A stretch of DNA of 64,000 bases from an uncultured Gammaproteobacteria bacterium (GCA_964537315.1 CAZIAP010000002.1:107237-171236); one strand, 5' to 3'; positions 15,664 to 60,122 are shown, counted from the stretch's first letter. Notes: generated by a model not told the origin, from the sequence alone. Numbers and translations are program-made.

Positions 15664-15704
15664 ACAAGCTATTGTACATATTTAATTCGAAAATAACAAT
15701 AATT

Positions 15705-43408: not shown

Positions 43409-43454
43409 AGTAAAATACTGGATACAGAATACGGAATACAGTATACTAAAAACT

Positions 43455-44051
43455 ATGCCTAAGCGAACAGTTATATTGATCTTAGTTTTAACTATCTTAA
43501 CAGGAGTTTTGGTGTTTTTAGCGCTTAAGAATGAGCAGAGAACAGCACCTCAACAAGCTGGTGAAGGAGAAAGGATAACCGAAGATACAGCGCTGCCCGA
43601 GAAAACAGCAACTCTAACATTTGATCCTCAAATAATGGAAGCTATACCTTCAACCGCGTCAGCAAACACTGTTGATGTAGTACTCAATGCCAATGAGCAT
43701 ACTATTGATAGTGTTCAGCTCGAGATAGTTTATGACCCTGCTGATCTTTCTAATGTAACAGTGAGTGCACCGGAGAATAACATATTCGGTGGTCCAGGTA
43801 GCTATACTGTCATACCAATGCCTTCAGATCCTGCACTTGGTAGAGTTTCATTTGCAATGGGTATCAGTACTCAAGCTCAAGCAGTACAAGGTGCTGGTCC
43901 TGTAGCACGAATTTCATTCACGGTGAACCCATCAACTACAAAAGATGTTACTCAAATCCAGATCATGGATCGATCTATGATAGTTGAGACAAATAGTCAT
44001 GAAAGTGTTCTTGCGCCGGTTGATCCACTTACTATTAACATTATTCGGTAA
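43455..44051 (+). CDS. Secreted cohesin-like domain protein
   Basis: Signal anchor. The beta-sandwich segment ATLTFDP...VDVVLNANEHTIDSVQLEIVYDPADLSNVTV is cohesin-like. Start chosen at the ATG at 43455 (MPKRTV...). Confidence 0.45.
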   Translation: MPKRTVILILVLTILTGVLVFLALKNEQRTAPQQAGEGERITEDTALPEKTATLTFDPQIMEAIPSTASANTVDVVLNANEHTIDSVQLEIVYDPADLSNVTVSAPENNIFGGPGSYTVIPMPSDPALGRVSFAMGISTQAQAVQGAGPVARISFTVNPSTTKDVTQIQIMDRSMIVETNSHESVLAPVDPLTINIIR

Positions 44052-44057
44052 CGCTGC

Positions 44058-44855
44058 ATGAAAAATTTAGTTTCAAAATTCCCTCAGTATTTTTCTTCTC
44101 ATACAAGAGTCATCCCATTACTCGGAGTTCTTACATTACTTCTTGCACTTCCTTTAACTCTAAACCTAATTAAGAACAATCAAGATAATAGGCAGCAAGC
44201 TGCATCCTTAAATGATCAACTTTCTATACAGCAAAACAACCCGAATCCTGGTGTCCAAAGTTTAACATGTGAGTCAGTTAACGGAAGGTGTGTGACCGAA
44301 TCTGAGTGGGCAAGTACGCAGGCAATTTTTGCAGCTGCTTCTGTAGATGGTACATATGCTTGTCCTCAAAAAGGCGGACAGAACCAGGTTTGTATTGTAC
44401 AAGAACGAGCAAATGTATCTAATCAGACATGTGACGTATCTGCCGGATTCACTTGTGATTATCGAGGACACGATGAATGTGAGGCTACCCTCGGGGTTGG
44501 TAATTGTGAACATGAAGCGAATGCTAGATGTCATAATGGAAATCTGTGTATGAAAATTTCCAGTTCTTCAAACTCAAACTTTCCGCCTTTAGGTAGTCCA
44601 TGTCCTGACGGATCATCCAACTTCTCTTGTGGATATGGATCTCCAAATACACAGTGTCCAGTATGTAGCCCTACTTCCTCTTGTAGCACTGGAAACTATA
44701 CCATACAAGCCTGTTCAGGAGCTGGGTCGTGTACAAATGATCCTGACTGCGCAGGAAATCCTCCAAGTTGTCCTGCAGGACAGACTGGTCAGGTAGTTTG
44801 CCAAAAAGCTGCCGGGCAAACACAAGGTGCTTGTGTTACTGTTAACTGTCGATAA
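44058..44855 (+). CDS. Small secreted, extremely Cys-rich protein
   Basis: Signal anchor with the LPLTLNLIKNNQDNRQQAA motif. More than 30 Cys in roughly 210 mature residues (about 15%). No TM after the anchor. Confidence 0.5.
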   Translation: MKNLVSKFPQYFSSHTRVIPLLGVLTLLLALPLTLNLIKNNQDNRQQAASLNDQLSIQQNNPNPGVQSLTCESVNGRCVTESEWASTQAIFAAASVDGTYACPQKGGQNQVCIVQERANVSNQTCDVSAGFTCDYRGHDECEATLGVGNCEHEANARCHNGNLCMKISSSSNSNFPPLGSPCPDGSSNFSCGYGSPNTQCPVCSPTSSCSTGNYTIQACSGAGSCTNDPDCAGNPPSCPAGQTGQVVCQKAAGQTQGACVTVNCR

Positions 44856-44888: not shown

Positions 44889-44925
44889 TTGACAATATTT
44901 AGCACTCATGCTATCATTTTGCTAA
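44889..44925 (+). promoter_or_regulatory. hrcA promoter (TTGACA-N17-TATCAT) overlapping a CIRCE-like inverted repeat
   Basis: TTGACA 44889-94 and TATCAT 44912-17. TTAGCACTC (44899-907, exact CIRCE left arm)-N9-TTTTGCTAA (44917-25, 6/9 to GAGTGCTAA). An additional GAGTGC...GCACTC palindrome lies upstream. Confidence 0.55.
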
Positions 44926-44965: not shown

Positions 44966-45688
44966 ATGTACGATCTTACACCTCGCCAGATAGAGATATT
45001 GAAAAATATTGTACGTGAGTACATAGACTCTGCTGAGGCAGTGGGCAGCGAAACTTTAGAAAAAAAATATGATCTCGGAGTTTCACCTGCAACTATCAGA
45101 AATGAAATGGCAGATATGGTAAAACTCGGATATCTTGCTAAGCCGCACTCTTCTTCAGGTCGTATTCCTACAAGTAAAGCCTTAAAACTATACGTAAACG
45201 AATTGATGAAAGAGAGAGAGCTCTCGGTTGCAGACGAAGTTGAAGCCAAAGAAAAGGTGTGGGACGTAAGAGATGCAGAGTCACAATTTTTCCGTCAACT
45301 GACACGCAGTCTCTCCCAAAAGACAGGTACATTAGCTGTTGCGGCAACCCAGGAGGGAGACATGTACTTTGCGGGTTATTCTAATATCTTAGATATGCCT
45401 GAGTTCTATGACATTGATATTACAAAAAATTTACTTGCAATTTTAGATGATGTGTCATATTTCGATATGATACTCAAACATATCGAAAATGATTATGCAG
45501 TTATACTTGGTGAAGATTTTGGTTTAGAACCATTAAGACCATACGGATTTGTGTTTTCTAAATATAGCACGAAGAAAAATAGAGAAGGTTCTATAGGTGT
45601 AATCGGTCCTGCCAGGCTACATTATGAATTAGTAGTCCCATGTGTTAGATACTACGGAAGCCTAGTTGGTGAAATTGCAGATTGGTAA
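44966..45688 (+). CDS. hrcA: Heat-inducible transcription repressor HrcA (short, 240 aa)
   Basis: N-terminal wHTH LTPRQIEILKNIVREYIDSAEAVGSETL. Position is immediately upstream of grpE-dnaK. Confidence 0.7.
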   Translation: MYDLTPRQIEILKNIVREYIDSAEAVGSETLEKKYDLGVSPATIRNEMADMVKLGYLAKPHSSSGRIPTSKALKLYVNELMKERELSVADEVEAKEKVWDVRDAESQFFRQLTRSLSQKTGTLAVAATQEGDMYFAGYSNILDMPEFYDIDITKNLLAILDDVSYFDMILKHIENDYAVILGEDFGLEPLRPYGFVFSKYSTKKNREGSIGVIGPARLHYELVVPCVRYYGSLVGEIADW

Positions 45689-45702
45689 GTTTAAAAATTG
45701 AT

Positions 45703-45790
45703 CTAATTTCTAATTAACTAATTAATCTAAATTTTTGGAAATTGGATAAATTAGGACTTTTTTAGAAATTAGAATAATTAGAGCAATTAG
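45703..45790 (+). repeat. CTAATT x3 / AATTAG x4 direct- and inverted-repeat array in the hrcA-grpE intergenic region
   Basis: CTAATT at 45703, 45710 and 45718. AATTAG at 45749, 45767, 45776 and 45785. A near-identical CTAATTTCTAATT..CTAATTAA core recurs after dnaK at 48302-48335. Confidence 0.6.
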
Positions 45791-45795
45791 AAATT

Positions 45796-46260
45796 ATGCA
45801 AGATAAGAAAGTAAAGAAAAAGGACGATACGGTTCTCAAAATAGATGAACTAGAGCAAAAAATTAGTGAATTAGATGACCAATATAAAAGAGCTATTGCA
45901 GATTATCGAAATCTTGAAAAAAGAGTTGCTGAAGATAGACTTGAGTTCATTAAATTTGCAAATAAAGAATTATTGGACAGATTGCTTCCTGCATTTGACA
46001 CTTTGTTTTTGGCAGAGAAGTATGTTCAAGATGATGGTCTGAAGCTTACGATTAAGTCACTCTCTGACGCTTTGGAGCAAGTAGGCGTTAAAAGAGTGGA
46101 TACGACAGGAAACAAATTCGATCCACAAACAATGGAGTGTGTAGAGACAGTTGAAGGTGAAGAAGGTAAAGTAACAGAAGAAGTGAGACCAGGATTTATG
46201 TTAGCTGATAAAACACTTCGTCCTGCATTAGTAAAAGTGGGAAAGGAGAAAAAAGAATAA
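45796..46260 (+). CDS. grpE: Nucleotide exchange factor GrpE
   Basis: RAIADYRNLEKRVAEDR coiled-coil region and the GrpE C-terminal beta domain. 154 aa. Confidence 0.85.
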   Translation: MQDKKVKKKDDTVLKIDELEQKISELDDQYKRAIADYRNLEKRVAEDRLEFIKFANKELLDRLLPAFDTLFLAEKYVQDDGLKLTIKSLSDALEQVGVKRVDTTGNKFDPQTMECVETVEGEEGKVTEEVRPGFMLADKTLRPALVKVGKEKKE

Positions 46261-46342
46261 GGTAGGATGTATAAAGTATTAAGTTTTCTAAAGATTTAGT
46301 ATATACTTAATACCTGATACATAGTACTTGAAATAAAAAAAT

Positions 46343-48286
46343 ATGGCAAAAATTATAGGTATTGATTTAGGTACAACAAACTCAGCAGTTGCTGTCATGG
46401 AAGGTGGCAGCCCTAAAGTGATCTTTTCATCAGAAGGACGAAACGTTACTCCGTCAGTTGTAGACCCAGTCGAAAGAGTTGTTGGCGACGTGGCAAAGCG
46501 TCAGATGGCTTTAAAGCCAAAACGAATCATCTACTCGATTAAACGATTAATGGGTCACCGTTTTAAAGATGACGCAATACAGGAAGAAATAAAACGACTT
46601 CCCTACACTATAAAAGAAGGTCGCGATGGCATGGCCGTCGTTGAAGTAGAAGGAAAAACATACACTCCTCAAGAAATATCTGCACAAATTTTACAGAAGC
46701 TTAAAAAAGATGCTGAGAGTTATTTGGGTGATACTGTTACTCAGGCAGTTATTACCGTACCAGCATACTTTGATGATGCTCAGCGTCAGGCAACTAAGCA
46801 GGCGGGAGAGATTGCAGGGCTTGAAGTACTGCGGGTGGTTAACGAGCCAACTGCAGCTGCACTCGCGTACGGATTGGATAAAAAGCACGCGCACACTATT
46901 GCAGTCTACGATTTAGGAGGAGGAACATTTGATATCTCATTGCTTGAACTAGGTGAAGGAGTATATGAAGTGAAAGCTACAAATGGTGATACACACCTTG
47001 GAGGAGATGATTTCGATAAAGCAATTATTGACTGGTTAGCAGAGGAGTTTAAGAAAGAAAATGGCGTTGATCTGCGTCAAGATCCTCAGGCGCTACAACG
47101 CTTGAAAGAATCTGCTGAAAAAGCAAAGATCGAGTTATCTACTTCCATGGAAACTGAGATTAATCAGCCATTTATTACCATGGGTCAAAATGGTCCTCTT
47201 CACTTAACAGTAAAACTTACCAGAAGCAAACTTGAACAGTTAATCGACGGACTTGTACAGAAAACATTTAAACCAGTTGAAGATGCTCTAAAAGACGCAG
47301 GTTTGACTGCAGATAAAATTGATGAGGTTATATTGGTCGGAGGTATGACTCGTATGCCAAAAATCGTCGATGCCGTAACTAAATTTTTTGGAAAGGAACC
47401 AAACAAAAGTGTTAATCCAGATGAAGTAGTATCCATTGGAGCAGCTGTACAAGCAGGAGTTCTTGGAGGAGATGTAAAAGACGTTTTACTTCTGGATGTT
47501 ACACCGCTGACACTGGGAATCGAGACATTAGGAAGTGTGGCAACTCCACTTATACCACGTAATACGACTATTCCTACCAAAAAATCACAAGTCTTTTCAA
47601 CCGCAGCAGATAATCAGACACAGGTTGAGATACACGTAGTGCAAGGAGAGCGACCGATGGCAAGTGATAATAAATCGCTAGGTAAATTTGTCCTCGATGG
47701 AATTCCTCCAGCTCCAAGAGGAGTGCCACAGATTGAGGTTTCGTTTGATCTTGATGCCTCTGGTATTTTGTCGGTTACCGCCAAAGATAAAGCCAGCGGA
47801 AAAGAGCAGAGTATTAAAATCACGGGTTCAACAGGACTGACAGATGATGAAATTCAAAAAATGACTCAGGAAGCAGAAAAGAATGCGGAAGAAGATCAAA
47901 AGAAAAAAGAGTTAATAGAAGCAAAAAATCATGCAGAGAATCTAGCTTTTACAGCTGAAAAATCACTTAAAGACGCAGGAGATAAAGTGGCTGAAGATCT
48001 CAAAAAAGAGATAACGGATAAAGTCGCTGCAGTTCGTGAAGCAATTAAAGGTGATAATAAAGAAGAGATTGATAGCAAGACTAATGAGCTTTCAGAAAGC
48101 ATGCAGAAAATCGGCCAAGAGATGTATGGATCGGCAGGCTCACCACAGGATGGTTCTGACAGCTCATCGCAAGACTCTCGTGACTCTGCTCATGACGGAA
48201 CAGCTGAAAACTCAGATGATCAAAAGAAAGACTCCTCAGATAATCCAGACGAGCCTGTTGAAGGTGAAGTCGTAGATGAGAAGTAA
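46343..48286 (+). CDS. dnaK: Chaperone DnaK (Hsp70)
   Basis: [29 protein letters not shown], and an acidic C-terminal tail. Confidence 0.95.
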
Positions 48287-48301
48287 TTCTCATAAAAATT
48301 A

Positions 48302-48335
48302 CTAATTTCTAATTGATCTAATTAACCAAAATTAG
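48302..48335 (+). repeat. Second copy of the CTAATT-array element, downstream of dnaK
   Basis: CTAATT at 48302, 48309 and 48318, plus AATTAG at 48330. The core aligns with 45703-45723 with few mismatches. Confidence 0.55.
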
Positions 48336-48447
48336 TCTCAATATTAAAATCCCTAATCAATAAGAAGTTAGACTCTAGATATCTGAAGTGATTAATTTTA
48401 ATTTCTCCCGTTTGTATTGATTTTCTTCTTTATGCTACTATTAATAT

Positions 48448-48738
48448 ATGCCGTGTGAAGCAAATGAGGTTTATACTGACTTTGGGTGTGTTCCTAATGA
48501 TCCAATCGGATTTGTAGAAAGATTTTACGGAATAGGACTTTCGGTTATAGGAATGGTGGCTGTACTATTCCTTATAATTGGTGGGTATCATATTCTGACT
48601 TCTCAAGGGAGTCCTGAAAAGCTGCAAAAAGGTCGTGAATATATCTTGTATTCTATTTTAGGGTTACTGCTTGGAGTATTTGGGTTCGTTTTCGTACAGA
48701 TAATAACCGGTGTATTACATATTCCCGGATTTAGCTAA
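48448..48738 (+). CDS. Small 2-TM protein (VirB2/TrbC-pilin-like topology; alternatively holin-like)
   Basis: 96 aa. Polar N-terminus with two Cys (CEANEVYTDFGC), two hydrophobic helices separated by TSQGSPEKLQKGRE, and a short tail. Confidence 0.35.
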   Translation: MPCEANEVYTDFGCVPNDPIGFVERFYGIGLSVIGMVAVLFLIIGGYHILTSQGSPEKLQKGREYILYSILGLLLGVFGFVFVQIITGVLHIPGFS

Positions 48739-48744
48739 AGACTT

Positions 48745-51162
48745 ATGAAAAAATTTCTGCCCAAATTTGTACTTATCACATTTTTCTCTATTGCCTTTCT
48801 CCTTGTAGGTACTCTGACTAGCGTTAGTGCTCAGACATTAGACTCTCCGAATGATGTTAATAACGGTAACTGGGTTGAGGATCCAGAGGTGACATTTGTC
48901 GGAAAGGCAGCAAACAGAGCAAACGATTTTTTAAACTGGACATTGCAAAATTATAACTGGCTATGTGTAGAAAAAGCCGGTGATGCCTGTGTAAATACAT
49001 ATGACAATAATCCCTTAGTTGAGTTTTGGGAAATGGTGCGTAATATCATATATGCTTTACTTCTCTTATTTGTTTTGGGAACTGCGGGTGTAATTATAGT
49101 TACGCGAGGTCAAAACATCACTATTATGCGTTTTGTGCCTAGATTTATCGTAATTATTTTACTTGTTACATTTTCATTTGCGTTAGTTCAGTTCTTATAT
49201 GTTGTAGTTGATATTGTCCAAGGATTTTTCCTTCGACCTGATGGACCAGAAGGACCGCTAATTTCATCAGCTGATCTGCTTTATATAGCTTTTCCTTATG
49301 AATTTACTGGCTTTAGGGCACTAGGATCTGATAATGACGAATCCGCATTTATCTCATTGTTGCTTGTAAAACTAACCGCAATTACTTATTATGTGATGAC
49401 AGGTGTGTTATTAGTGCGAAAAATCATCCTCTGGTTTTTCCTTATCGTGTCACCTATATTTCCTCTGCTTATCTTTTACCGCCCTGTTCGCAATACCGCA
49501 AAGATTTGGGTTGGAGAGTTCTTCCGTTGGTTGTTGTACGCGCCTCTCTTTGCACTTTTTCTACACGGTTTGGTGGTTATGTGGAGAGATAAAATTCCAC
49601 TCGCATTTGATTTTAACTCACAGGGTAGTGTTGCAGGCACAGACGTACTCTATCCTACAGCAGTAAACATTTTAATCGGTGGACCAGGTCAACAGATAGG
49701 GATCAATAACTCAGTTAATCTTCCTGATACTTTCGCACTATACGTAGTTGCTTTAATCATGCTTTGGGTGGTTATCTTGCTACCATTTTTACTACTTCGA
49801 ATTTTCTTAGATTACTTTAATTCCATCTCATTTAGCGGATTTATGTCTAAGCAGGTCAACAAAAACTTTGCTTTCTTAAACCCACGTGGTCCATCGGGTG
49901 GTCCAACTCCTCCGCCTCCTCCGGGTAAGGTGTTTCCAACCGGCATGGCGCGTCAGTTGCCATTTTTGAATAAAGCCGCAAAAACAATTGAAGTTGGTAG
50001 GCCGGTCAGTACCAGTAGTACGAGAGATATTAGATCATCCGTGCAGTCTAATGTTAGCCAACCTGTAGCAGTAAGAGAGGTTAACGAAGTTCTCAAGTCT
50101 GTCAATATAAGTGTTCCTAAGATGCAGGACGTTGTGAAGTATGAGAGAGCGTTATTAAGTAATAATATTACTGAACGTCAAACAGTCACACAGTTCCGTG
50201 AGACATTAGAAAAAATTGCAAATCCAGCACAGGTTACTTCAGTTACAGAGCGTCAGCAGTTTAGCCAGATACACGAGAAGCTAACTACCCAGCAGGAGAG
50301 AGGAAACCCGTTGGCAACATCAATTCTTAAGGCTGCTGGAAAAACAACTGTAAGTAGTACAATTGATATTAATCAGCAGCTTCGAATGTTGCTCCAGCAG
50401 CTAGCGAGCCCATCTACTGTAAACCCACGTGTACGTCAAAAGATGAGTACACTTAAAACACAGCTTACAGGTGCTCAACATAGTGGAAATAATTTAGCAA
50501 CAACTGTGCTGACTACTGCTGAGAAAATCAGTAAAAAAGAGCTAACTAAAGAGCAGGAAGATGCAGCGATTGAGGAGATCAAGACAAAGATCCAGGAGCA
50601 AAAACAGACAAGCGATCCAGTTACTCAGTCTGTTGTATCTACGATGCAACAAGCACAGGCTGTAACAGAAACTCAATCATTACCTGTTATAAATAGAGTC
50701 CAGCAAGTAAGCATTGAAGATTATGAGGAGGTACGAAAGATGTGGGTAGAGAATTATGAGACATTAGAACCTCCTAAGACGCTTGAAGGCAAGCAACTGG
50801 AGAGAGAGGAATGGGTTAGAAGTGACGTGCAGAAGATTAATGAAGCAGTCACTCTGCTTTCATCTGTTGAGCCGCAAAAAGTTAATGAAGGTATGGAGAT
50901 GGTCGGAAGTATTTTGCCGTTCCTACTCATGGGAGGTTTCTCTAAATCTGAGGTTGTTGCCTACTTGAAAGCGAAGCTTGCAGCTGCCAAGTCTATACTG
51001 GAAGCAGCCGAAAAGCAGAAAGACGATGAAGATTCGATGATATATCGCGAGACCAAGAAAGAAGAGGCAAAAGAAATGAGCATAAAACATGCTATAGAGC
51101 TTCCGAGTGAAAAAGAATCGCCTAAAAATTCGGAAGACGACGAGACTAAGACTCAACCGTGA
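48745..51162 (+). CDS. Large polytopic membrane protein with Sec signal peptide, ~6 TMs, poly-Pro hinge and ~400-aa coiled/Q-rich cytoplasmic tail (VirB6/TrbL-like architecture)
   Basis: Signal peptide ...TSVSA|QT. The TM block spans roughly aa 95-330. GGPTPPPPPGK follows. A long hydrophilic C-terminus carries degenerate internal repeats. Confidence 0.4.
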   Translation: MKKFLPKFVLITFFSIAFLLVGTLTSVSAQTLDSPNDVNNGNWVEDPEVTFVGKAANRANDFLNWTLQNYNWLCVEKAGDACVNTYDNNPLVEFWEMVRNIIYALLLLFVLGTAGVIIVTRGQNITIMRFVPRFIVIILLVTFSFALVQFLYVVVDIVQGFFLRPDGPEGPLISSADLLYIAFPYEFTGFRALGSDNDESAFISLLLVKLTAITYYVMTGVLLVRKIILWFFLIVSPIFPLLIFYRPVRNTAKIWVGEFFRWLLYAPLFALFLHGLVVMWRDKIPLAFDFNSQGSVAGTDVLYPTAVNILIGGPGQQIGINNSVNLPDTFALYVVALIMLWVVILLPFLLLRIFLDYFNSISFSGFMSKQVNKNFAFLNPRGPSGGPTPPPPPGKVFPTGMARQLPFLNKAAKTIEVGRPVSTSSTRDIRSSVQSNVSQPVAVREVNEVLKSVNISVPKMQDVVKYERALLSNNITERQTVTQFRETLEKIANPAQVTSVTERQQFSQIHEKLTTQQERGNPLATSILKAAGKTTVSSTIDINQQLRMLLQQLASPSTVNPRVRQKMSTLKTQLTGAQHSGNNLATTVLTTAEKISKKELTKEQEDAAIEEIKTKIQEQKQTSDPVTQSVVSTMQQAQAVTETQSLPVINRVQQVSIEDYEEVRKMWVENYETLEPPKTLEGKQLEREEWVRSDVQKINEAVTLLSSVEPQKVNEGMEMVGSILPFLLMGGFSKSEVVAYLKAKLAAAKSILEAAEKQKDDEDSMIYRETKKEEAKEMSIKHAIELPSEKESPKNSEDDETKTQP

Positions 51163-51223
51163 CGAAGTTTAGTTGTGAGAGAGGTCAGAGTGTGTCTATA
51201 ATAAACAAGTTATTAGTTATCTT

Positions 51224-54200
51224 ATGTTTGGAAATCTATTTAATCAGAAAAAAGATGGAACGGAAGAACAGGTTCCTCCTACACCTGTGCAGGTGCCACA
51301 GCAGGGAGTAAATCCTGTTGTTGACCCTTCTCAGCCGCAGATGACACAACAACCTCCACAAGTAGTGCAGACAGGTAGCGTAGAACAGACGACTACAGGT
51401 ATGGGAATTCAGGCAGGCCTGCCCGCAATGCAAAGCAACGCGTTTCAGGCGGGACCTGTTGTGTTTAGTCAGACTGACACAGTAACAAATACTCAAAATG
51501 TACCAATTCAACCTCAGCAACCGGGGCAAAATCCACAAGCCGTGTCTCAGCCAACTATGCCAGATCAAACAGTACCAGGTCAGCCTATTGCTCCTGATAA
51601 TCCAGGGATGGGAGCAGAGAAAATGCAAAACGTATCGGCTCTTTCTCGTTTGGATGCCAGAGCAACGCAGGTATTACACCATGCGCAAGAAGAAACCAGG
51701 AGGATTCAGCAAGCACTTATAGAACCTGACCAGATACTTTATGGCTTGATCTATGACAGTGGGGTATACAAGCTCCTTGAACAGTTCTCAATTGATGCAT
51801 CAAAAATTGCAAAAGATATACAAGGAAAATCCCAACAGGGTACATTTACAGGACAGCCAACTCTAAGCCCGCAGTCTCAAGAAATTTTTGATACTGCTTT
51901 TAATTCGGTAAAAGCGCGACAGGCAAGTTTTATAACTCCTGAGGATATTCTACTAGCCCTTTTCAATGCAGCAGCAATGGCTGAGTTTTTCAGAACTCAG
52001 GGAGTTGATAAAGGAAAAGTAGAAGAAAAGCTTGCAAAAAACACTAGTTTTGTGGGAGATGGAAAGAGATCAGTTCTGGATAAATACAGTATAGATCTTA
52101 CACAAAATGCAAGAGACGGCCTATTAGATCCAGTTACTGGACGTGACGTTGAGATAGAAAGACTTGTACACATTTTGCTTCGTAGAACAAAAAATAATCC
52201 GATAATTATAGGTGAAGCAGGTGTAGGAAAAACAGCTATAGTCGAAGCTATTGCACAAAAAATTGTAGATGGACAGATTCCTGAAGATCTAAAAAACAAA
52301 AAAATTATTCAGCTAGACCTTGCTTCGATGATTGCAGGTGCTGCTCGTAGAGGTGAGTTTGAAGAGCGCCTACGTAGTATTATTCAGGAGGTGCAAGCTT
52401 CTGGACAGATAATTTTATTCATCGATGAAATACATACTCTAGTTGGAGCAGGCGATTCGGGAGGCGCGCTGGATGCATCAAATATTATTAAACCATATCT
52501 TTCTCGTGGGCAGCTTCAGCTAATTGGTACAACCACAACTGCTGAGTTCAGGAAGTATTTTGAAAAAGACAAAGCATTTGAAAGAAGATTCCAACCGATT
52601 ATGGTTCAAGAACCGGACGAAGAGGTTGCGGTAGAGATGTTAAATGTTATCAAACCTAAATATGAAAAGTATCACAACGTTGTGATGACGCCTGAGTCTA
52701 TCGAAGCTGCTGTTGTGCTATCTAAAAAATATATCGGAGAAAGATTTCTACCCGATAAAGGTGTGGATTTGCTTGATGAAGCAGCTGCAGAGGTAAAGCT
52801 TGCTAAAGCAGAAGGGAAACGGCAGGATAATAATATTGTTAAAACTGATATAGAAAAAGTAGTTTCAAGTTGGACGGGGATTCCGATCACACGACTTACA
52901 GAAGACGAAAGTGAAAAGTTGCTGCACTTAGAAGATCATATTCATAAACGCCTCATTGATCAGGAGGAAGCTGTTGCAGCGGTCTCAGAGGCAGTACGTA
53001 GAGGGCGAATCGGTCTCGCTTCAGCAAACAGGCCGATTGCTTCATTTATATTTTTGGGTCCTACAGGTGTCGGTAAAACGGAGCTTGCCAAAACCCTTGC
53101 TGAGATTTTGTTTGGCAGGGATGACGCAACTATCCGACTTGATATGTCTGAGTATATGGAAAAGCATGAGGTTGCAAAACTTATCGGTGCTCCTCCGGGA
53201 TATGTAGGTTATGAAGAAGGCGGACAATTAACAGAAGCTGTAAGATCAAAACCATACTCAATTGTGCTCCTTGATGAGGTTGAGAAGGCACATCCTGATG
53301 TGTTTAATATTCTACTGCAAATTTTGGAAGATGGAAGACTCACCGATAATAAAGGTAATACAATTTCATTTAAAAATACTATTATTATTGCCACTTCAAA
53401 TCTTGGAAGCCACATAATCCAAAAGTTTTTACTTGAACGGGCAAAAAATTCTGGAAAATCTACCGAGAATATCGAAAGTTCTACAACTGAGAAGAATCCA
53501 GATGAATCCAAAGGTAAAGAAAATACTGAAAAACAGGCTAACTTAGAAAATGACGAGAAGAATAATGATGTCTCAACAGAGGGTGCACAATCTGGTAAGG
53601 ATACAACTGGATCAAAGTCATATTCAGAACAACGAGTAAATCTACAGCTTGGAGGAAATACTGATAAGAAAACCGATGGTGAGTTCGAAGAGCTGACAAA
53701 ATTACTGCAAGAAGAGCTGCATAAATTCTTCCGTCCTGAATTGTTGAATAGATTTGATGATCTTGTAGTATTCAAGCCGCTTGCACAGCGTGATATGATG
53801 CAGATTGCAAAGCTCGGTATCGGTAAAACTCAAAAACTCTTAAAAGAGCAAGGATTTGACATCCAAATTACGGATCTAGCACTGGATCAGCTGGCAAAAG
53901 AAGGGTACGATCCTGTATATGGTGCTCGACCTTTGAGAAGATTAATTCAAAACTCAATTGAAAACGCAATCGCTATTGCATTAATTAGTAAACAGTTTGT
54001 TGCTGGTGACACCATTATTATTGATTACGACACTACACAGCAAAAGTTTGCTTTCTCAAAGGGAGCTTCTCAAAACCAGTCAGGACAGCCACAGGGAGAG
54101 GGTTCTCAACCACCTACTGGGCCAGGTCAGCCTGTCAATACCCAAGGTACAACAAATCAACAAACTGGATTACCCCAGAACTCTCCTCAAGCTCAGATAC

Positions 54201-54463
54201 CAAATCAGAACACAGGTCAGGTAGTTAATCAAAATCCTGCAACACAGCAACCTGTTCAGCCAACTGCTCCACAAGAAGTGTACTATGGTGTTCCTCCTCA
54301 GAATCAGCAAGTAAATTCTCAGCCAGTTCAACCAAATCAACCTATTGGACAAGAAAATGGAACAGGTATAGTGCAGCCACCGCAAACACCTCCACAGTAT
54401 CCGCAGACTAACGGTGCGGGTCCGGCAGGAAATGGCGCAACCATGAATACGTCTGTATCCTAG
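51224..54463 (+). CDS. ClpC/ClpA-like double-ring AAA+ ATPase with Q/P-rich N- and C-terminal extensions and a low-complexity insert in D2
   Basis: Clp_N-like repeat. D1 Walker A IIIGEAGVGKTAIVEAIA, Walker B ILFIDEIHTLVGAG. D2 Walker A FIFLGPTGVGKTELAKTLAE, Walker B IVLLDEVEKAHPDV. The short inter-ring linker means no ClpB-type M-domain. A roughly 100-aa K/E/S/T-rich insert at 53433-53735 replaces the usual ClpP-binding IG[FL] loop. Confidence 0.8.
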   Translation: MFGNLFNQKKDGTEEQVPPTPVQVPQQGVNPVVDPSQPQMTQQPPQVVQTGSVEQTTTGMGIQAGLPAMQSNAFQAGPVVFSQTDTVTNTQNVPIQPQQPGQNPQAVSQPTMPDQTVPGQPIAPDNPGMGAEKMQNVSALSRLDARATQVLHHAQEETRRIQQALIEPDQILYGLIYDSGVYKLLEQFSIDASKIAKDIQGKSQQGTFTGQPTLSPQSQEIFDTAFNSVKARQASFITPEDILLALFNAAAMAEFFRTQGVDKGKVEEKLAKNTSFVGDGKRSVLDKYSIDLTQNARDGLLDPVTGRDVEIERLVHILLRRTKNNPIIIGEAGVGKTAIVEAIAQKIVDGQIPEDLKNKKIIQLDLASMIAGAARRGEFEERLRSIIQEVQASGQIILFIDEIHTLVGAGDSGGALDASNIIKPYLSRGQLQLIGTTTTAEFRKYFEKDKAFERRFQPIMVQEPDEEVAVEMLNVIKPKYEKYHNVVMTPESIEAAVVLSKKYIGERFLPDKGVDLLDEAAAEVKLAKAEGKRQDNNIVKTDIEKVVSSWTGIPITRLTEDESEKLLHLEDHIHKRLIDQEEAVAAVSEAVRRGRIGLASANRPIASFIFLGPTGVGKTELAKTLAEILFGRDDATIRLDMSEYMEKHEVAKLIGAPPGYVGYEEGGQLTEAVRSKPYSIVLLDEVEKAHPDVFNILLQILEDGRLTDNKGNTISFKNTIIIATSNLGSHIIQKFLLERAKNSGKSTENIESSTTEKNPDESKGKENTEKQANLENDEKNNDVSTEGAQSGKDTTGSKSYSEQRVNLQLGGNTDKKTDGEFEELTKLLQEELHKFFRPELLNRFDDLVVFKPLAQRDMMQIAKLGIGKTQKLLKEQGFDIQITDLALDQLAKEGYDPVYGARPLRRLIQNSIENAIAIALISKQFVAGDTIIIDYDTTQQKFAFSKGASQNQSGQPQGEGSQPPTGPGQPVNTQGTTNQQTGLPQNSPQAQIPNQNTGQVVNQNPATQQPVQPTAPQEVYYGVPPQNQQVNSQPVQPNQPIGQENGTGIVQPPQTPPQYPQTNGAGPAGNGATMNTSVS

Positions 54464-54464
54464 T

Positions 54465-56408
54465 ATGGAAAATCCGCAGTCTTCAAGTTTTACATCACTG
54501 TTTCAATCTCGTAGGTTTCTAATTGCAGCAGGATTTATTTTACTTCTTGTGCTTGTTGGAGTAGGAATATTTTTTATCTTAAGCAGCAAGCCTCCACTCG
54601 AGCCTATTCCTGAAGGCTCTGTGTACACTCCCGACGAAGTAACTGTACAGTTTGCGCAAGGTTATACACCTGCTCCGCAGGGAGAGAATGAAAATTGGGA
54701 TAGGTTGTATGCAAAGCTCCAAGAACTGGGCGTTCAGTCATACTCTAAAGTGTTCGATTCAAATGATCCTGATTTATCAAGATATTATAAGCTTAAGCTT
54801 TCTTCTGATGCTGAAGTTGCCACAATCCGTGAAGAGTTATATAAGCTTGATGAAATAAAAGCTTCTGAACCTGAGTATATCCTCAGTACTCAGTTGAGTG
54901 CTAATGATGCAGAATATTCTGGTATGTGGGGACTGAAAAAAATTGATATTGAAAAAGCTTGGGATGTAACCAGAGGCTCAAACTCTGTGAAAGTCGCAGT
55001 GGTAGATACGGGAATTGACTATAATCACCCTGATTTCGCAGGGAGATCAATTATTAAGGGTAAGGACGTATCAACTTGCGACAGCACATACCAAGAGCTT
55101 CTTGCTTCAAACGGTCAATGTACGAAACCTAAACAACCTGATAATGACCCATTAGATAGTAATAACGGACACGGCACTCACGTTGCGGGAACAATAGGCG
55201 CTGCGACTAATAATGGAATAGGAGTCTCTGGAGTAAATTGGAACGTAACACTAATTGCCGTAAAAACGATGGGAGAAGGTGGCGCAGGGGGTATGTCTGA
55301 AATTGCAAATGGATTGGTAGATGCAGTGGATAGAGGAGCTGATGTGGTAAATATGAGTCTTGGTGGAGAGGGAACATGTACATCTCAGATGCAACAAGCG
55401 ATAAATTATGCCAGAAATAAAGGAGCTGCTATAGTAGTCGCTGCCGGAAACGGTGACAGAAATGGTAATCCTATTGATGCCTCTCGGGTTACTCCAGCGA
55501 GCTGTACAGGTGTAATTGTGGTTGGAGCAACGGGACCAAATGATGAACGCTCAAGTTATTCAAACTACGGAACACGGGTAGATCTAGCGGCGCCTGGAGG
55601 AAATGAACCAAGAGGAACATCATCATGCACAAAATCTAATTGCATAACTTCAACATGGCCAGGAAGACAGTACAGATCGGTTCAAGGTACATCTATGGCA
55701 GCGCCTCACGTAGCAGGTGTCGCAGCTCTTCTGCTGGCACAAAATGGCAGCCTAACACCGGATGACATTAAAAGATGTCTTATTAACAGTGGAAACCCAA
55801 TAAGTACAGACAGACCAATTGGTGGAAAAAGACTTAATGCATATAGTGCGCTTAACGGCTGTATAGCAAGTGCGAATCAGCCGACGACTCCTCCTGCAAA
55901 TCCGCCTACTGCTACTCCAACAGATACGCAAGCGCAAACACCAGCCATTGAACCATCAGAGTATTATCTAAAAGGTTTTACATACTCGGATGCTAATAAT
56001 AATCTTACCTTTGATTCAGGAGAGACCATGGTTGCGGGAGTCATATTGAAGTTGACTGATGAATCAAACGTAAACACTAATATTCCTACTGGAGCAGATG
56101 GTAAGTTCGAATTTAGAAATTTAAAACCTGGTTCTTATCTATTAACCGCAACAGTTGGTACTCGAGATGTGATGGAGTATAGAATAGGACTTGATTTAAA
56201 TATGAGCAGCCAAAACATACCAATTCCGATTCCCTCAGTAGAACCGTCTGATCCCGATAATCCTTCACAAGGGGAGAATAGGGTAATTATAACAGGCTCA
56301 CCTACTCCAACTCCTCGTCCGTTACATACATGTGTAGAGAAGACTACTCAGCAACGTGTTAATAACCGTGTCTTGCAGCTTAAGTACCTCGACTGCACTC
56401 CTATATAA
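54465..56408 (+). CDS. Membrane-anchored subtilisin-like serine protease (S8) with C-terminal Cna-B/CarboxypepD_reg-like domain
   Basis: N-terminal TM. Catalytic triad motifs VAVVDTGIDYNHPDF (Asp), HGTHVAGTIGA (His) and GTSMAAPHVAGVAALL (Ser). The C-terminal segment DGKFEFRNLKPGSYLLTA is a prealbumin-like fold. Confidence 0.85.
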   Translation: MENPQSSSFTSLFQSRRFLIAAGFILLLVLVGVGIFFILSSKPPLEPIPEGSVYTPDEVTVQFAQGYTPAPQGENENWDRLYAKLQELGVQSYSKVFDSNDPDLSRYYKLKLSSDAEVATIREELYKLDEIKASEPEYILSTQLSANDAEYSGMWGLKKIDIEKAWDVTRGSNSVKVAVVDTGIDYNHPDFAGRSIIKGKDVSTCDSTYQELLASNGQCTKPKQPDNDPLDSNNGHGTHVAGTIGAATNNGIGVSGVNWNVTLIAVKTMGEGGAGGMSEIANGLVDAVDRGADVVNMSLGGEGTCTSQMQQAINYARNKGAAIVVAAGNGDRNGNPIDASRVTPASCTGVIVVGATGPNDERSSYSNYGTRVDLAAPGGNEPRGTSSCTKSNCITSTWPGRQYRSVQGTSMAAPHVAGVAALLLAQNGSLTPDDIKRCLINSGNPISTDRPIGGKRLNAYSALNGCIASANQPTTPPANPPTATPTDTQAQTPAIEPSEYYLKGFTYSDANNNLTFDSGETMVAGVILKLTDESNVNTNIPTGADGKFEFRNLKPGSYLLTATVGTRDVMEYRIGLDLNMSSQNIPIPIPSVEPSDPDNPSQGENRVIITGSPTPTPRPLHTCVEKTTQQRVNNRVLQLKYLDCTPI

Positions 56409-56472
56409 ATTTCACCACTGGAAACCTACTTGTCTAGCAATCTGACCTCCCATTTGATAAAATGACTAGCGT

Positions 56473-57345
56473 ATGGCATCACGTGATTATTATGAAATAC
56501 TAGGTGTTTCAAAAAATGCAACTGCTGAAGAGCTGAAGCGCGCGTATCGTAAACTAGCTCTTGAATATCACCCTGACAGAAATAAAACTAAAGAAGCAGA
56601 AGCGAAATTCAAAGAGTTGAACGCAGCTTACGAAGTGTTGAAAGATCCTGAAAAACGCCGAGTTTATGATCAGGTTGGTCCGTCAGCTTTTGAAAATGGT
56701 GGTGGAGCAGGAGGACCATTTGGAAATGCTGCAGGAGGACAGTACGGGCCGTTTACATATACATATAGTACTTCAGGAGGAGAAAATCCTTTTGAGGGGT
56801 TCGGAGGCTTTTCAGATCCGTTTGACATTTTTGAACAGTTCTTTGGAGGAGGATCCCCTTTTGGTAGAAGAAAGCCTGCTTATTCCTTGCGTATAGATTT
56901 TATGGAGTCGGTCAAGGGAGCTGAGAAAAAAGTTACAATTGAAGGAAAGTCAAAAACAATTAAAATCCCGGCCGGAGTGCAAACAGGGTCGCGCATAAGA
57001 TTTGACGAGTTTGATATTGTTTTAGAAGTAGAATCCCACCCTAAATTTCACAGAGAGGGATACGATATCGTAACAGTAGAGAGTATTTCTATGACAATGG
57101 CCGCTTTGGGAGGAACCATTGAGGTTGAAACAGTGGAGGGTAAAGTAAAGCTTAAAGTACCCGCAGGTACTCAACCAAACGCAATTATCAGAATCAAAGG
57201 AAAGGGAGTGCCACATATTAAAGGAAATGGCAAAGGTGATCATTTCGTGAAAGTAAACGTAGAGATTCCAAAAAAGGTAAGTGGAAAACAAAAAGAACTT
57301 CTTGAGCAACTTGATAGTGAACTGAAAAAGAAAAAATGGTTCTAA
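56473..57345 (+). CDS. dnaJ: DnaJ-like co-chaperone lacking the Zn-finger domain (type II/CbpA-like)
   Basis: J-domain [33 protein letters not shown], a G/F-rich region and C-terminal substrate-binding domains. There are no CxxCxGxG repeats. Confidence 0.8.
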
Positions 57346-57405
57346 AATCAGAATAAGGAAGCCCTCACACTTTATACATTCTACATAATACTTTATACTA
57401 GTTGT

Positions 57406-57732
57406 ATGCCTGCCCTGCTGTACCCTATTTTTCTATTGAAATTTTGGTATATCGATGCGACAAAGTTTTTTTTGCACGTTTACCGTGAACTATTTGTTTA
57501 TTGTTTGTCTCTTTTTTCTCTACCATTACTCATTCGTTCATTCTTCAGACCGGTTAAAAACGAGTACAGAAAGGACTTAGTATTGTTTTCTATTTTTTTC
57601 GGTATGGGGGTAAAATCTGTACTTATCAGTATATCTATCGCAATTATGCTGTTTCTATTACTTGTAGGCGTAATATTACTTATTAGTTTTTGGGCATTTC
57701 CTTACTTTGTCTATCAGCTATTAAGCTTATGA
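57406..57732 (+). CDS. Small 3-TM membrane protein
   Basis: 108 aa and hydrophobic. It overlaps the start of the following AAA+ gene, so its reality is uncertain. Confidence 0.3.
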   Translation: MPALLYPIFLLKFWYIDATKFFLHVYRELFVYCLSLFSLPLLIRSFFRPVKNEYRKDLVLFSIFFGMGVKSVLISISIAIMLFLLLVGVILLISFWAFPYFVYQLLSL

Positions 57733-60122
57733 ACGATTATAAAAACCTGTTTACATATTATTCTTTTTTTAATACTGGCTGGGTGGTATTGGTAAGATAT
57801 GTCATTTTTTTCGCGTGTTTACTGCTTCTTTTTCTATTTATCCAGGATCTAGATAAGTCTAAAATGATCTTAGCAGGATTCATGCTTTTTTTAGCAAATG
57901 AGCTATTTATACATCTGAAAATAAATAAAGTTCGTCCTCAAAAGACAGTTTCACAGGTTGCAGTCGATACGCTTGAGTTAGCAGTTTTTTTCCGTCCGCT
58001 TTTATTTCTTAGACATTCTAAGAATGGAATAGATCTTGCTCGTAAGCTGGTAAGACATCCCGCAAATACATATTTACTAGGAAAAATTACTGGTTCACTG
58101 GCGATACCAGAAGCAGATGTAGAAATAACAGCAATACTTCAAAAAGCTTATGTATTAGTTAATAGTGTAAAAGGACAGTATATCTCTCAACTCGATTTAT
58201 TTGCTGCTTATATTCTGCTCGCGGAAAACTCTGTGCACATGCTTGAGAATGCGGATATGAACGAACAGGACTTTATAAACATATACTACTGGGCACGTAA
58301 TTCCTATAAGGTTGATGAAAATAATAAGCCATTTAAGATGTCATTTTATGGAGATGGTTCTTTTGATTTTTTTGTTTACGGTTGGAGTACAGAGTTAAAA
58401 AAATATGCAAGAAGTGTTAATTCAAGTGTGCTTTCTCGCAAGCATATTCCTCGTGTTATCGGGCGAGGTGCAGAATACGAACAATTGATTGTTGCACTAA
58501 GTAAACCGCAAGCTCGCAATATACTGCTTATCGGTGAACCCGGTACCGGAAAAACTTCACTTGTCGAGTTTTTCTCGTACAATTCTCATCTTGGTAAAGT
58601 CCCTGCTCAACTATCTAATATGCAAGTATATGAAATATTCATTGATAGGTTACTAGCTGGAGTATCTGATAGAGGAGAGCTTGAACATCGTTTAGTTACA
58701 CTGATCGATGAAGCGGGTCATGCCGGAAACATCATATTATTTATACAGAACATTGAAAATATTTTTGGTGCGGGAGGATTTGATTTTGATATCTCAGGAG
58801 TACTATATGATTACCTTAAAAACGGAATGTTAACTGTTATCGGTACAACAACAAACTCCGCTTATAATACTCACATTGCAAATCGTGAAGCTACAGCTGC
58901 GCTTTTTACAGCAATCGATCTTCCTGAGCCGGATGAGGATACTACACTTTACATGTTATTTGAAAAAGTAGGAGATATAGAGCGTCAGTACGGTGTTGAT
59001 ATTACCTACTCTGCAGTAAAAACACTAACCACTTTATCAGGAAGTTATCTGACAGATAGAGCTTTGCCTGGAAAGGCGATTACTGTTTTAGAAGATATAG
59101 CTACCTCCCAGCAGATAAAAGGAAAACATCCTATTATTACAAAAGAAGTTGTGGAAGCGCATCTATCTGCGAAGACTCGCATTATTATTGGTAATCCAAC
59201 TAAAGAAGAAAAAGAACTACTGCTTAATCTTGAGGATAAACTGCACGAACGTATTGTAAGTCAGGATAGAGCAGTACAGGTAGTGGCAAATGCCATGCGT
59301 CGAGTTAGAAGTGGACTTAAATCAGGACATAGGCCAATAGCTGTTTTTCTATTTCTTGGACAGACTGGCGTGGGAAAAACGGAGACAGCAAAAGCTTTGG
59401 CAGAGGTTTATTTTGGAAGCGATGAGTCTATGATCAGGCTAGATATGAGTGAGTTTCAGAATCAGGATTCAATAGGAAAGTTACTAGGGGAGCAGGTTGG
59501 TCAAGAATACGCGGAAAATGCATTTACTGAGCAAGTTGCTAAAAATCCTTTTTCTCTCATCCTTTTAGATGAGTTTGAAAAAGCCCACCCGCAAATTTTA
59601 AATTTATTTCTTCAGGTTTTTGAGGATGGTAGGCTAACGGATAATAAAGGCAGAACTGTATCATTTCAAAACTCCATTATCATAGCTACATCCAACGCTG
59701 GTAGTGAGTATATACGTCAACAAGCTGGTCAGATTACCGACATTGATGTATTTACAAAACAGTTAATGGATATGCTGATGCGATCAGGACAGTTTAAGCC
59801 GGAGTTGCTTAACCGCTTTGATGAAACAGTTGTGTTTACTCCGCTTACCAAAGAAAATTTGCTCTCAGTTGCCAGCTTACTGCTTCAGAAAGCACTTGCT
59901 CCTCTGCAGGACAAGCAGATTAGCATAACATTTGATCAGGCTATTTTGAACAAAATCGTTTCAGAAAGCTATGATGAATATTTTGGAGCGCGGAACATTC
60001 GAAGATATATTACATCAACGGTTTCGGGATATATATCAGACCTCGTATTAAAAGATCAGCTTAAAAAAGGTTCACAGGCGGTACTTACAGTTGATTCATC
60101 GAATCAAATAACGATAAGATAG
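57690..60122 (+). CDS. Membrane-anchored Clp/Hsp100-like double AAA+ ATPase with degenerate D1 Walker B
   Basis: The N-terminal 90 aa form 2-3 TM helices in place of a Clp_N domain. D1 Walker A LIGEPGTGKTSLVEF. D1 Walker B reads ILFIQNIENIFGAG, i.e. QN where DE is expected (Q353/N354, nt 58746-58751). D2 Walker A FLFLGQTGVGKTETAKALAE and Walker B LILLDEFEKAHPQI are canonical. No IG[FL] loop. Confidence 0.75.
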   Translation: MGISLLCLSAIKLMNDYKNLFTYYSFFNTGWVVLVRYVIFFACLLLLFLFIQDLDKSKMILAGFMLFLANELFIHLKINKVRPQKTVSQVAVDTLELAVFFRPLLFLRHSKNGIDLARKLVRHPANTYLLGKITGSLAIPEADVEITAILQKAYVLVNSVKGQYISQLDLFAAYILLAENSVHMLENADMNEQDFINIYYWARNSYKVDENNKPFKMSFYGDGSFDFFVYGWSTELKKYARSVNSSVLSRKHIPRVIGRGAEYEQLIVALSKPQARNILLIGEPGTGKTSLVEFFSYNSHLGKVPAQLSNMQVYEIFIDRLLAGVSDRGELEHRLVTLIDEAGHAGNIILFIQNIENIFGAGGFDFDISGVLYDYLKNGMLTVIGTTTNSAYNTHIANREATAALFTAIDLPEPDEDTTLYMLFEKVGDIERQYGVDITYSAVKTLTTLSGSYLTDRALPGKAITVLEDIATSQQIKGKHPIITKEVVEAHLSAKTRIIIGNPTKEEKELLLNLEDKLHERIVSQDRAVQVVANAMRRVRSGLKSGHRPIAVFLFLGQTGVGKTETAKALAEVYFGSDESMIRLDMSEFQNQDSIGKLLGEQVGQEYAENAFTEQVAKNPFSLILLDEFEKAHPQILNLFLQVFEDGRLTDNKGRTVSFQNSIIIATSNAGSEYIRQQAGQITDIDVFTKQLMDMLMRSGQFKPELLNRFDETVVFTPLTKENLLSVASLLLQKALAPLQDKQISITFDQAILNKIVSESYDEYFGARNIRRYITSTVSGYISDLVLKDQLKKGSQAVLTVDSSNQITIR

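Follow-up and report, generated by a model that had tools for sequence, protein, structure and literature searches.

The hrcA-grpE-dnaK-dnaJ genes form one of the most conserved operons of bacteria, and the long coiled-coil M-domain in the first AAA+ ring (D1) of the Hsp100 protein ClpB is the docking site of DnaK. Other Hsp100s work with secretion machinery: ClpV (TssH) recycles the sheath in type VI secretion systems (T6SS), and HSP101 of the Plasmodium translocon of exported proteins (PTEX, PDB 6E10/6E11) unfolds its cargo, which it then passes to the membrane pore EXP2. Here we describe a 64,000-nucleotide stretch of DNA (CAZIAP010000002.1:107237-171236), hereafter the window, in which dnaK and dnaJ are separated by genes for a pilin-like miniprotein (pil), a polytopic membrane protein (B6), an atypical Hsp100 (ClpL) and an S8 protease. 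The notable point of this locus is the near-invariant coupling of pil and B6, which resemble VirB2 and VirB6 of type IV secretion systems (T4SS), to an unprecedented Hsp100 in an apparent heat-shock operon, while the split itself is an ordinary rearrangement.

Bacteria of the Candidate Phyla Radiation (CPR, Patescibacteria) are regarded as obligate epibionts in which attachment to hosts and feeding on them depend on the surface machinery, very little of which is understood. A survey of Patescibacteria T4SS centred on virB4 locates this gene near dnaA in Microgenomatia, finds VirB6 scarce in that group and suspects extreme divergence; it uses the VirB2-like pilin Pfam family to which pil belongs and makes no mention of Clp, DnaK, AAA proteins or chaperones (Quinonero-Coronel et al. 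2025, PMC12102498). A literature search for an association of Clp, DnaK and VirB6 in Patescibacteria or Levybacteria returned no description of one.

Gene order around dnaK and its history

We recomputed the open reading frames (ORFs) of the array and their Pfam domains, the Pfam scan of the window covering all ORFs of at least 140 aa plus pil and the small protein m108. Ten ORFs on the plus strand, all co-directional and with short gaps, span positions 44966 to 60122, from hrcA to mClp. As in the canonical operon, hrcA (44966-45688, 240 aa; Pfam HrcA, E 1e-18), grpE (45796-46260, 154 aa; GrpE, E 5e-32) and dnaK (46343-48286, 647 aa; HSP70, E 4e-257) stand in a row behind a CIRCE (controlling inverted repeat of chaperone expression) operator, but dnaJ does not follow directly. 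Between the end of dnaK (48286) and the start of dnaJ (56473) lie 8186 bases with four co-directional genes, pil, B6, ClpL and the S8 protease, and dnaJ is in turn followed by m108 and by mClp, a second Hsp100. The initial annotation had reported this split, the co-directional genes and a further membrane-anchored Clp-like ATPase after dnaJ, and all of these are present, with m108 between dnaJ and mClp; its domain calls were reproduced as well. The range that it gave for four inserted genes, 48448-54463, holds for three of them, as the protease lies at 54465-56408.

The displaced dnaJ (56473-57345, 290 aa) encodes a class-B-like protein with a J domain carrying the HPD motif, a G/F region and a DnaJ_C domain. 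It differs from a canonical class A DnaJ by the lack of a zinc finger and of CxxCxGxG motifs, and it scores 246 against the cut-off of 377 of the NCBIfam equivalog DnaJ_bact.

Gene neighbourhoods were compared around six B6 homologues and in 80 species-representative genomes, using our own ORF and BLASTP pipeline. The gene pil lies directly upstream of B6 in 74 of 76 loci and ClpL lies downstream of B6 in 61 of 64, at a distance of at most 161 bp in 54 of those, while dnaK is found within 10 kb upstream in 55 of 61. Of the 36 loci with at least 9.5 kb of downstream sequence, 24 have mClp after B6 and 19 have an S8-like protease. Other loci carry an M4/M28 or an M64-like peptidase in the protease slot or leave it empty, so that this slot is variable and the S8 protease no fixed member of the module. 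In seven loci (L016, L018, L024, L057, L068, L084, and L069 as judged by gap size), ClpL starts 1.4-1.7 kb after B6; the gap in the six inspected loci (e.g. 12267-13658 in L016) encodes a conserved membrane-anchored extracytoplasmic protein of about 450-540 aa ending in ...NHPFTCSQ.

Two gene orders recur. The order of the window, hrcA-grpE-dnaK-(0-2.7 kb)-pil-B6-ClpL-(protease)-dnaJ-m108-mClp, is found in 26 loci, all from species-representative genomes forming one clade, whereas 37 more distant loci show hrcA-grpE-dnaK-dnaJ-pil-B6-ClpL-(protease)-m108-mClp, with dnaK and dnaJ adjacent. HrcA is 63-92% identical to that of the window in split loci, compared to 53-58% in unsplit loci. Split and unsplit loci are reciprocally monophyletic in a neighbour-joining tree of DnaK, and in the ClpL tree the split clade (the 26 loci and the window) is nested within the unsplit loci. 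These gene orders and trees show dnaK-dnaJ-pil-B6-ClpL-(protease)-m108-mClp to be the ancestral order. In the simplest history, [dnaJ] and the neighbouring block [pil-B6-ClpL-protease] changed places once, in the ancestor of the clade of the window, and the new order was retained. The array is not an insertion of foreign genes. The four-gene insertion into an intact operon that the initial annotation proposed must be given up: the module already followed dnaJ, and the swap placed dnaJ behind the protease. The comparison with related genomes that it suggested nevertheless came out in its favour, the genes staying linked to dnaK and dnaJ.

The module is found away from dnaK in L043, L054, L082, L083 and probably L008 (3.5 kb of upstream sequence covered), and pil, B6 and ClpL have stayed contiguous there; two of these loci, L054 and L083, have the protease, m108 and mClp after the relocated genes as well. 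On the ClpL tree, the relocated loci occupy no fewer than two distinct places, indicating that the block moved together more than once. The correlation between genes of percent identity to the window was considered as a proxy for co-evolution and was not used, since low-complexity tails dominate ClpL and make the measure too crude.

The array is vertically inherited and specific to Levybacteria-type Microgenomatia (Patescibacteria/CPR). Many of the related metagenome-assembled genome records (L009, L011-L016 and others) are labelled uncultured Gammaproteobacteria, while their gene content and closest named relatives are those of Levybacteria/Patescibacteria; these labels look like placeholders or errors. 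Even without any functional coupling of its products, the locus provides a clean, datable rearrangement of a highly conserved operon and a synteny marker for a clade of the ultra-small Levybacteria.

The sole CIRCE-like inverted repeat in the 64 kb, TTAGCACTC-N9-TTTTGCTAA (44899-44925), a putative HrcA operator, sits 67 bases 5' of the hrcA start codon. It extends over the -10 element of a strong promoter of the sigma-70 type, the best one in the region (44889-44917, TTGACA-17-TGcTATCAT, that is TTGACA-17-TATCAT with a TG), and promoter and repeat together span 44889-44925 on the plus strand. About 50 related loci share this CIRCE-like element in front of hrcA, and it never occurs within the array; some loci have a second copy 2.4-4.7 kb further upstream of hrcA, adjoining hsp20 in L013. 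In the window, neither the cluster itself nor the region upstream of groEL contained a further CIRCE site. Strong promoter matches show a similar distribution, with 47 of 57 loci positive upstream of hrcA and hardly any at the internal junctions (dnaK-pil 0/11, dnaJ-pil 1/24, protease-dnaJ 0/13, ClpL-m108 0/11, dnaJ-m108 0/9).

Junctions are short, with median gaps across loci of 4 bp (pil-B6), 50 bp (B6-ClpL), 19 bp (ClpL-protease) and 0 bp (m108-mClp). In the window, 6 nt separate pil from B6 and 1 nt separates the ClpL stop from the S8 start, and the m108 stop overlaps the mClp ATG. None of the intergenic gaps of the window array contains a terminator-like site. Weak promoter-like sites do exist within the array, e.g. 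at 51173-51202. A terminator or a structured RNA in the 161-base spacer between dnaK and pil was rejected: the fold z-score of -1.4 indicates no unusual structure or stable hairpin, and the spacer has no Rfam match and no tRNA. A single promoter overlapped by CIRCE, followed by short junctions without strong promoters or terminators, suggests one long HrcA-controlled heat-shock operon that would span hrcA to mClp, and we infer that the array is co-transcribed. The co-regulation that had been proposed for these genes fits this picture.

The VirB2/VirB6-like pair, ClpL and their partners

The first gene after dnaK, pil (48448-48738, 96 aa), encodes a VirB2/TrbC-like T4SS pilin miniprotein, matching T4SS_pilin (PF18895) with 29.3 bits against a cut-off of 26.6. 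It consists of an acidic N-terminal tail with two conserved Cys, two transmembrane (TM) helices, a basic loop and a conserved C-terminal IPGFS, and its topology is VirB2-like. Its match to NF045849, a pilin-like family of Mycoplasma integrative and conjugative elements (ICE), reaches 31.6 bits and remains under the cut-off of 40. A second gene of the pilin family flanks the heat-shock operon in many unsplit relatives. It stands immediately 5' of hrcA in divergent orientation and encodes a large protein (240-470 aa) with a T4SS_pilin domain at the C-terminus, in L007 (4122-5285, minus strand) and likewise in L039, L040, L042, L049, L053, L059, L072, L074, L077 and L086. The window has none at that position.

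B6 (48745-51162, 805 aa) has a signal peptide, a small exo-domain, six TM helices and a cytoplasmic tail of about 430 aa, the signal peptide and the six helices being seen in a hydropathy scan. The same scan confirmed the other topologies proposed before: two TM helices in pil, an anchor in the protease and a membrane anchor in mClp. The B6 tail is made of helical repeats of about 45 aa (IANP...ER..F..IREKL...GN.LAT.IL) and ends in a highly conserved domain (ILPFLLIGGFS...AYLKAK). Modelled alone, this domain is a generic four-helix bundle with a predicted local distance difference test (pLDDT) score of 81, and the model gave no informative structural match. The match of B6 to the TrbL/VirB6 Pfam family is weak (E 2e-3), but its fold now backs the original VirB6-like call, and we are confident that B6 has the VirB6 fold and is a VirB6-type polytopic inner-membrane protein. 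The cluster thereby supplies both a VirB6-fold protein and a pilin for Microgenomatia, where VirB6 was considered nearly missing.

B6 has hundreds of strong full-length homologues; the few with source names are mostly labelled Levybacteria or Patescibacteria. A profile search of 1.84 billion representatives returned only 566 clusters of the B6 family, 329 of them at E<=1e-30. As judged by this search, the family is compact and separate, and not the fringe of a general VirB6 family. None of 72,556 plasmids or 50,697 phages contained a B6 match. Homologues range from about 700 to 2790 aa (P0121-P0132; L066, L080, L083) because the repeat tail in the cytoplasm and the C-terminal bundle have been duplicated repeatedly, giving up to 10 matched stretches. 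The length of ClpL (804-1513 aa) varies through its Q/P-rich tails, out of step with that of B6. In L089, a distant B6 homologue is followed by a cohesin-like small protein and then by about 1.9 kb without credible ORFs (13763-15677), which may be an RNA gene.

ClpL (51224-54463, 1079 aa) combines a Clp_N domain, two AAA modules and a D2-small domain. Its sequence matches include HSP101, and among solved structures it comes closest to ClpC (E 5e-209) and ClpB. From the N-terminus, it shows an MFGNLFNQKK peptide, a Q/P-rich linker, Clp_N, D1, D2 and a Q/P-rich C-tail. The N-terminal peptide is near-universal among the members of the family, in the form M[FL]GN[LI]F.QKK, and is followed by a disordered Q/P-rich linker; such a conserved, tethered peptide suggests a dedicated docking partner.

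In the alignment, D1-small runs directly into the D2 linker and ClpC residues ~425-465 remain unmatched, so that ClpL has no M-domain. No [LIV]G[FL] motif for docking of ClpP was found in the ClpL of the window nor in 62 aligned homologues; the corresponding site is ClpB-like or, in the lineage of the window, contains a low-complexity insert of about 75 aa. The motifs GEAGVGKT and ILFIDE in D1, and GPTGVGKT, VLLDE and GYVGY in D2, are near-invariant, so that ClpL has the Walker A and B motifs of both rings and the D2 pore tyrosine expected of an Hsp100 unfoldase. The D1 pore loop (residues ~372-382) reads AARRGEFEERL in place of the canonical KYRGEFEERL, the replacement of Tyr by Arg being near-invariant across the 62 homologues. 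An arginine at this position is unusual for a class I Hsp100.

Hsp100 classes have been told apart by the length of the M-domain and by the LGF loop (PMC10149685), and ClpL is neither ClpB, ClpC nor ClpI by these features. NCBIfam scores fall under every equivalog cut-off (ClpB TIGR03346, 876 vs 1232; ClpA TIGR02639, 707 vs 993; ClpV TIGR03345, 670 vs 885). M-domain, ClpP loop and cut-offs together rule out an identity as ClpC, ClpB, ClpA or ClpV, and "ClpC-like", as the protein had been labelled, is a misnomer. Without an M-domain, ClpL should allow neither ClpB-type docking of DnaK nor MecA-type control, and without the ClpP loop its substrates should escape proteolysis by ClpP. The alignments thus show a new Hsp100 architecture, predicted to be ClpP-independent and to dock neither ClpP nor, through an M-domain, DnaK or MecA.

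The S8 subtilase (54465-56408) carries a Peptidase_S8 domain with an intact D/H/S triad, as read from the sequence, and an SdrD_B-like beta-sandwich domain, and is predicted to be held on the outer side of the membrane by one N-terminal TM helix. Its best NCBIfam match is the mycosin of type VII secretion systems (T7SS; TIGR03921), with 169 bits against a cut-off of 279. m108 (57406-57732, 108 aa) has two hydrophobic segments and a conserved FxPxKNEYRKGLVGFS motif and matches no family. It is an obligate partner of mClp, which it always precedes, and the two are apparently fused in L057 (an 872-aa mClp match with no separate m108 match). In the window, the m108 stop and an ATG start of mClp overlap as ATGA at 57729-57732, and the position of this ATG is conserved. 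The overlap points to translational coupling of both genes, and the TTG start at 57690 from which the mClp ORF is listed (57690-60122, 810 aa) is therefore probably wrong, the likely start being the ATG at 57729.

mClp is a paralogue of ClpL (41% identity) with two N-terminal TM helices and, like ClpL, has no M-domain and no ClpP loop. Its D1 Walker B is degenerate (ILFIQNIE in the window, with QN where the consensus of the family has PD), its D2 ATPase motifs are intact, and this consensus has also lost the aromatic residues of the pore loops. The motif set of an Hsp100 unfoldase is thus incomplete in mClp, which looks like a membrane-anchored pseudo-unfoldase whose D1 ring would be dead.

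A putative envelope machine and its rivals

We tentatively read the array as chaperone genes joined to an envelope module, in which ClpL might act as a motor on a VirB6-like platform in place of VirB4; this is quite possible, if short of an even chance. B6 would form the membrane platform, as TrwI does in R388, and ClpL, bound to the B6 tail by its N-terminal peptide and/or N-domain, would stand in for the missing VirB4 as the motor on the cytoplasmic side. By threading driven by D2, ClpL could draw out the pilin-like subunit or assemble it, and/or drive surface proteins in unfolded form through B6. The part of DnaK, DnaJ and GrpE would be to hold the clients unfolded and pass them on, the outside protease would process the emerging proteins, and m108-mClp would serve as a regulatory or anchoring ring. 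We infer a physical contact between B6 and ClpL.

If this coupling is functional, ClpL would be the first bacterial Clp/Hsp100 motor to serve a T4SS-derived membrane platform, stress chaperones would be linked directly to surface-protein export, and a new Hsp100 subclass would be defined, without M-domain, ClpP loop or D1 pore tyrosine and with a tethered N-terminal docking peptide. The further-reaching proposal is a genuinely new translocon: an unrecognised envelope machine without VirB4, formed by pil, B6 and ClpL (with the protease and m108-mClp), with the Hsp100 stacked on or tethered to the VirB6 platform and wired into the HrcA/DnaK circuit, which would export unfolded surface proteins or assemble a VirB2-like fibre. 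We regard this as doubtful; if true, it would represent a new class of secretion or pilus-assembly system in Microgenomatia, mechanistically nearest to Plasmodium PTEX.

Several observations weigh against the motor-on-platform reading. The B6 C-terminal domain resembles no known Clp adaptor, and the D1 pore loop of ClpL, without its tyrosine, could weaken threading. An extra gene separates B6 and ClpL in the seven loci mentioned above, and ClpL is absent after B6 in two others, L056 (B6 followed by two S8 proteases) and L076 (pil-pil-B6-PEGA/SH3). Distant B6 homologues, from a set including Gottesmanbacteria, Roizmanbacteria and Microgenomates group labels, are not beside Clp or dnaK, indicating that B6 does not need an adjacent ClpL and limiting the generality of the association. 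In addition, metG, hsp20 and glycosyltransferase genes likewise hold their places in these genomes; synteny is generally high in such small genomes, which makes conserved adjacency weaker evidence than elsewhere. Finally, B6 could simply be the missing VirB6 of the virB4 system near dnaA (PMC12102498).

Much of this also favours a serious rival, that the genes are neighbours by descent. ClpL (with mClp) would then be the ClpB-equivalent disaggregase of the lineage, pil and B6 would serve a VirB4-type T4SS encoded elsewhere, near oriC, and the gene order would be frozen. The synteny of the flanking housekeeping genes, the B6 homologues outside the lineage and the loci in which B6 lacks ClpL or is separated from it would all be expected, as would a remote VirB6, virB4 lying near dnaA and VirB6 being scarce in Microgenomatia (PMC12102498). 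An Hsp100 gene linked to the dnaK regulon is also common in bacteria, as is well established. Nevertheless, pil-B6-ClpL left the vicinity of dnaK together on at least two independent occasions and came through the dnaJ block swap intact, and the genes are packed very tightly, with gaps of 4 bp between pil and B6, 50 bp between B6 and ClpL and, in the window, 1 nt between ClpL and the S8 gene. Moreover, ClpL lacks the M-domain that a ClpB cooperating with DnaK needs, and its conserved tethered peptide suggests a dedicated partner. On balance we consider descent alone somewhat unlikely.

A second alternative is that the module, instead of secreting proteins, provides quality control of membrane proteins during heat stress. 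As dislocases, ClpL and mClp would pull misfolded or jammed envelope proteins, including pilin or B6, out of the membrane, in a way that would resemble the extraction step of FtsH, Msp1 and Cdc48; DnaK and DnaJ would refold them, and the outer protease would clear exposed remnants. The single CIRCE promoter of the array is consistent with this role, as are the two Hsp100 paralogues, one of them TM-anchored with an obligate small membrane partner, the lack of a ClpP loop and hence of ClpP proteolysis, and the many surface proteins encoded nearby. However, mClp, with its D1 Walker B lost and, in the family consensus, its pore-loop aromatics as well, would make a poor pulling motor, the VirB2-like/VirB6-like pair is left unexplained as the invariant partner, and FtsH, the protease that usually performs quality control at the membrane, is encoded on at least one related contig (L091). 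This explanation seems improbable to us.

That the array is the remnant of an integrated conjugative or mobile element landed in the dnaK operon is hardly credible and effectively refuted: the T4SS ancestry of pil and B6 and the weak match of pil to the Mycoplasma ICE family would agree with it, but the Pfam scan of the window found no integrase, relaxase, VirB4 or VirD4, there is no flanking tRNA gene (flanking repeats were not searched for), the region matches the remainder of the window in G+C content, B6 has no match in plasmids or phages, and the genes are inherited vertically at the same chromosomal place across a deep clade.

Surroundings of the array and comparison with known systems

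The rest of the window encodes GroEL, TatD, MetRS, many glycosyltransferases, MurJ, LepA, PilN/PilO, a cohesin/dockerin pair, a sortase and several surface proteins. Three of the latter, a PKD-domain protein (28788-29909, minus strand), a dockerin protein (41465-43408, plus strand) and a Cys-rich protein of 265 aa (44058-44855, plus strand), share an N-terminal TM helix followed by P[LV]TL.L[IV]K[QN][QN]QD.R..AA, which may be a lineage-specific signal or processing motif, and they are candidate clients of the nearby protease or export module. Just upstream of hrcA (41465-44051, plus strand), the 647-aa dockerin surface protein is followed by a membrane-anchored cohesin-domain protein, a cellulosome-style pair in a CPR genome. 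Three tandem genes for PMT_2-family glycosyltransferases (15705-20600, minus strand) and a fourth at 5773-7152 (minus strand), with adjoining DUF2298 and epimerase genes, suggest a heavy capacity for surface glycosylation. PilO-like and PilN-like genes (23688-24961, minus strand) indicate that the genome also encodes a type IV pilus system, distinct from the VirB2-like pil.

The Pfam scan of the 64-kb window found no VirB4, VirD4, relaxase, integrase, VirB1, VirB3 or VirB8 families, and no T6SS or Ecc (EccB-EccE) families. Likewise, a scan of ten ORFs that flank B6 homologues or the module in four atypical loci (L056, L076, L082, L083) found neither VirB4 nor VirD4.

For B6 and pil, the nearest described systems are VirB6/TrwI and VirB2 of conjugative T4SS (R388 stalk, PDB 7O3V/8RT9) and DotA of the Legionella Dot/Icm system. 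The present cluster differs from conjugative T4SS in having no VirB4, VirD4, VirB3, VirB8, VirB1 or relaxase near pil-B6, and the constant neighbour of B6 is an Hsp100 instead of the VirB4 ATPase. Compared to TrwI, the repeat tail of about 430 aa and the four-helix bundle of B6 lie beyond the span of the aligned 261-residue TrwI chain. With the T4SS described in Patescibacteria (PMC12102498), the cluster shares the phylum and the pilin family, but it stands beside dnaK and contains no virB4.

ClpL has an N-domain and two AAA+ rings, like ClpB, ClpC and ClpA, and it lacks the ClpP-docking loop, like ClpB and the ClpIb of Actinomycetota (PMC10149685). It has no M-domain at all, unlike ClpB, where this domain is long, and ClpC and ClpI, where it is short. 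The Tyr to Arg change in the D1 pore, the MFGNLF peptide on its Q/P-rich tether and the Q/P-rich C-tail further set it apart from class I Hsp100s.

The gene content recalls the ESX systems (T7SS: EccA, EccD, MycP), with an AAA+ ATPase in the cytosol, a polytopic protein in the membrane and an extracytoplasmic S8 protease that carries a membrane anchor. Unlike in ESX, the mycosin score is far under its cut-off, the EccB, EccC, EccD and EccE families are missing and the protease slot is replaceable. MycP is anchored C-terminally, whereas the S8 protease is anchored at its N-terminus.

In ClpV and HSP101, ClpB-like Hsp100s devoted to secretion machinery are already known. The partner genes of T6SS and PTEX are not found here; the membrane partner of ClpL would instead be VirB6-like, in a coupling that is read from gene order alone. 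Of the two precedents, HSP101 with its EXP2 pore is the closer one.

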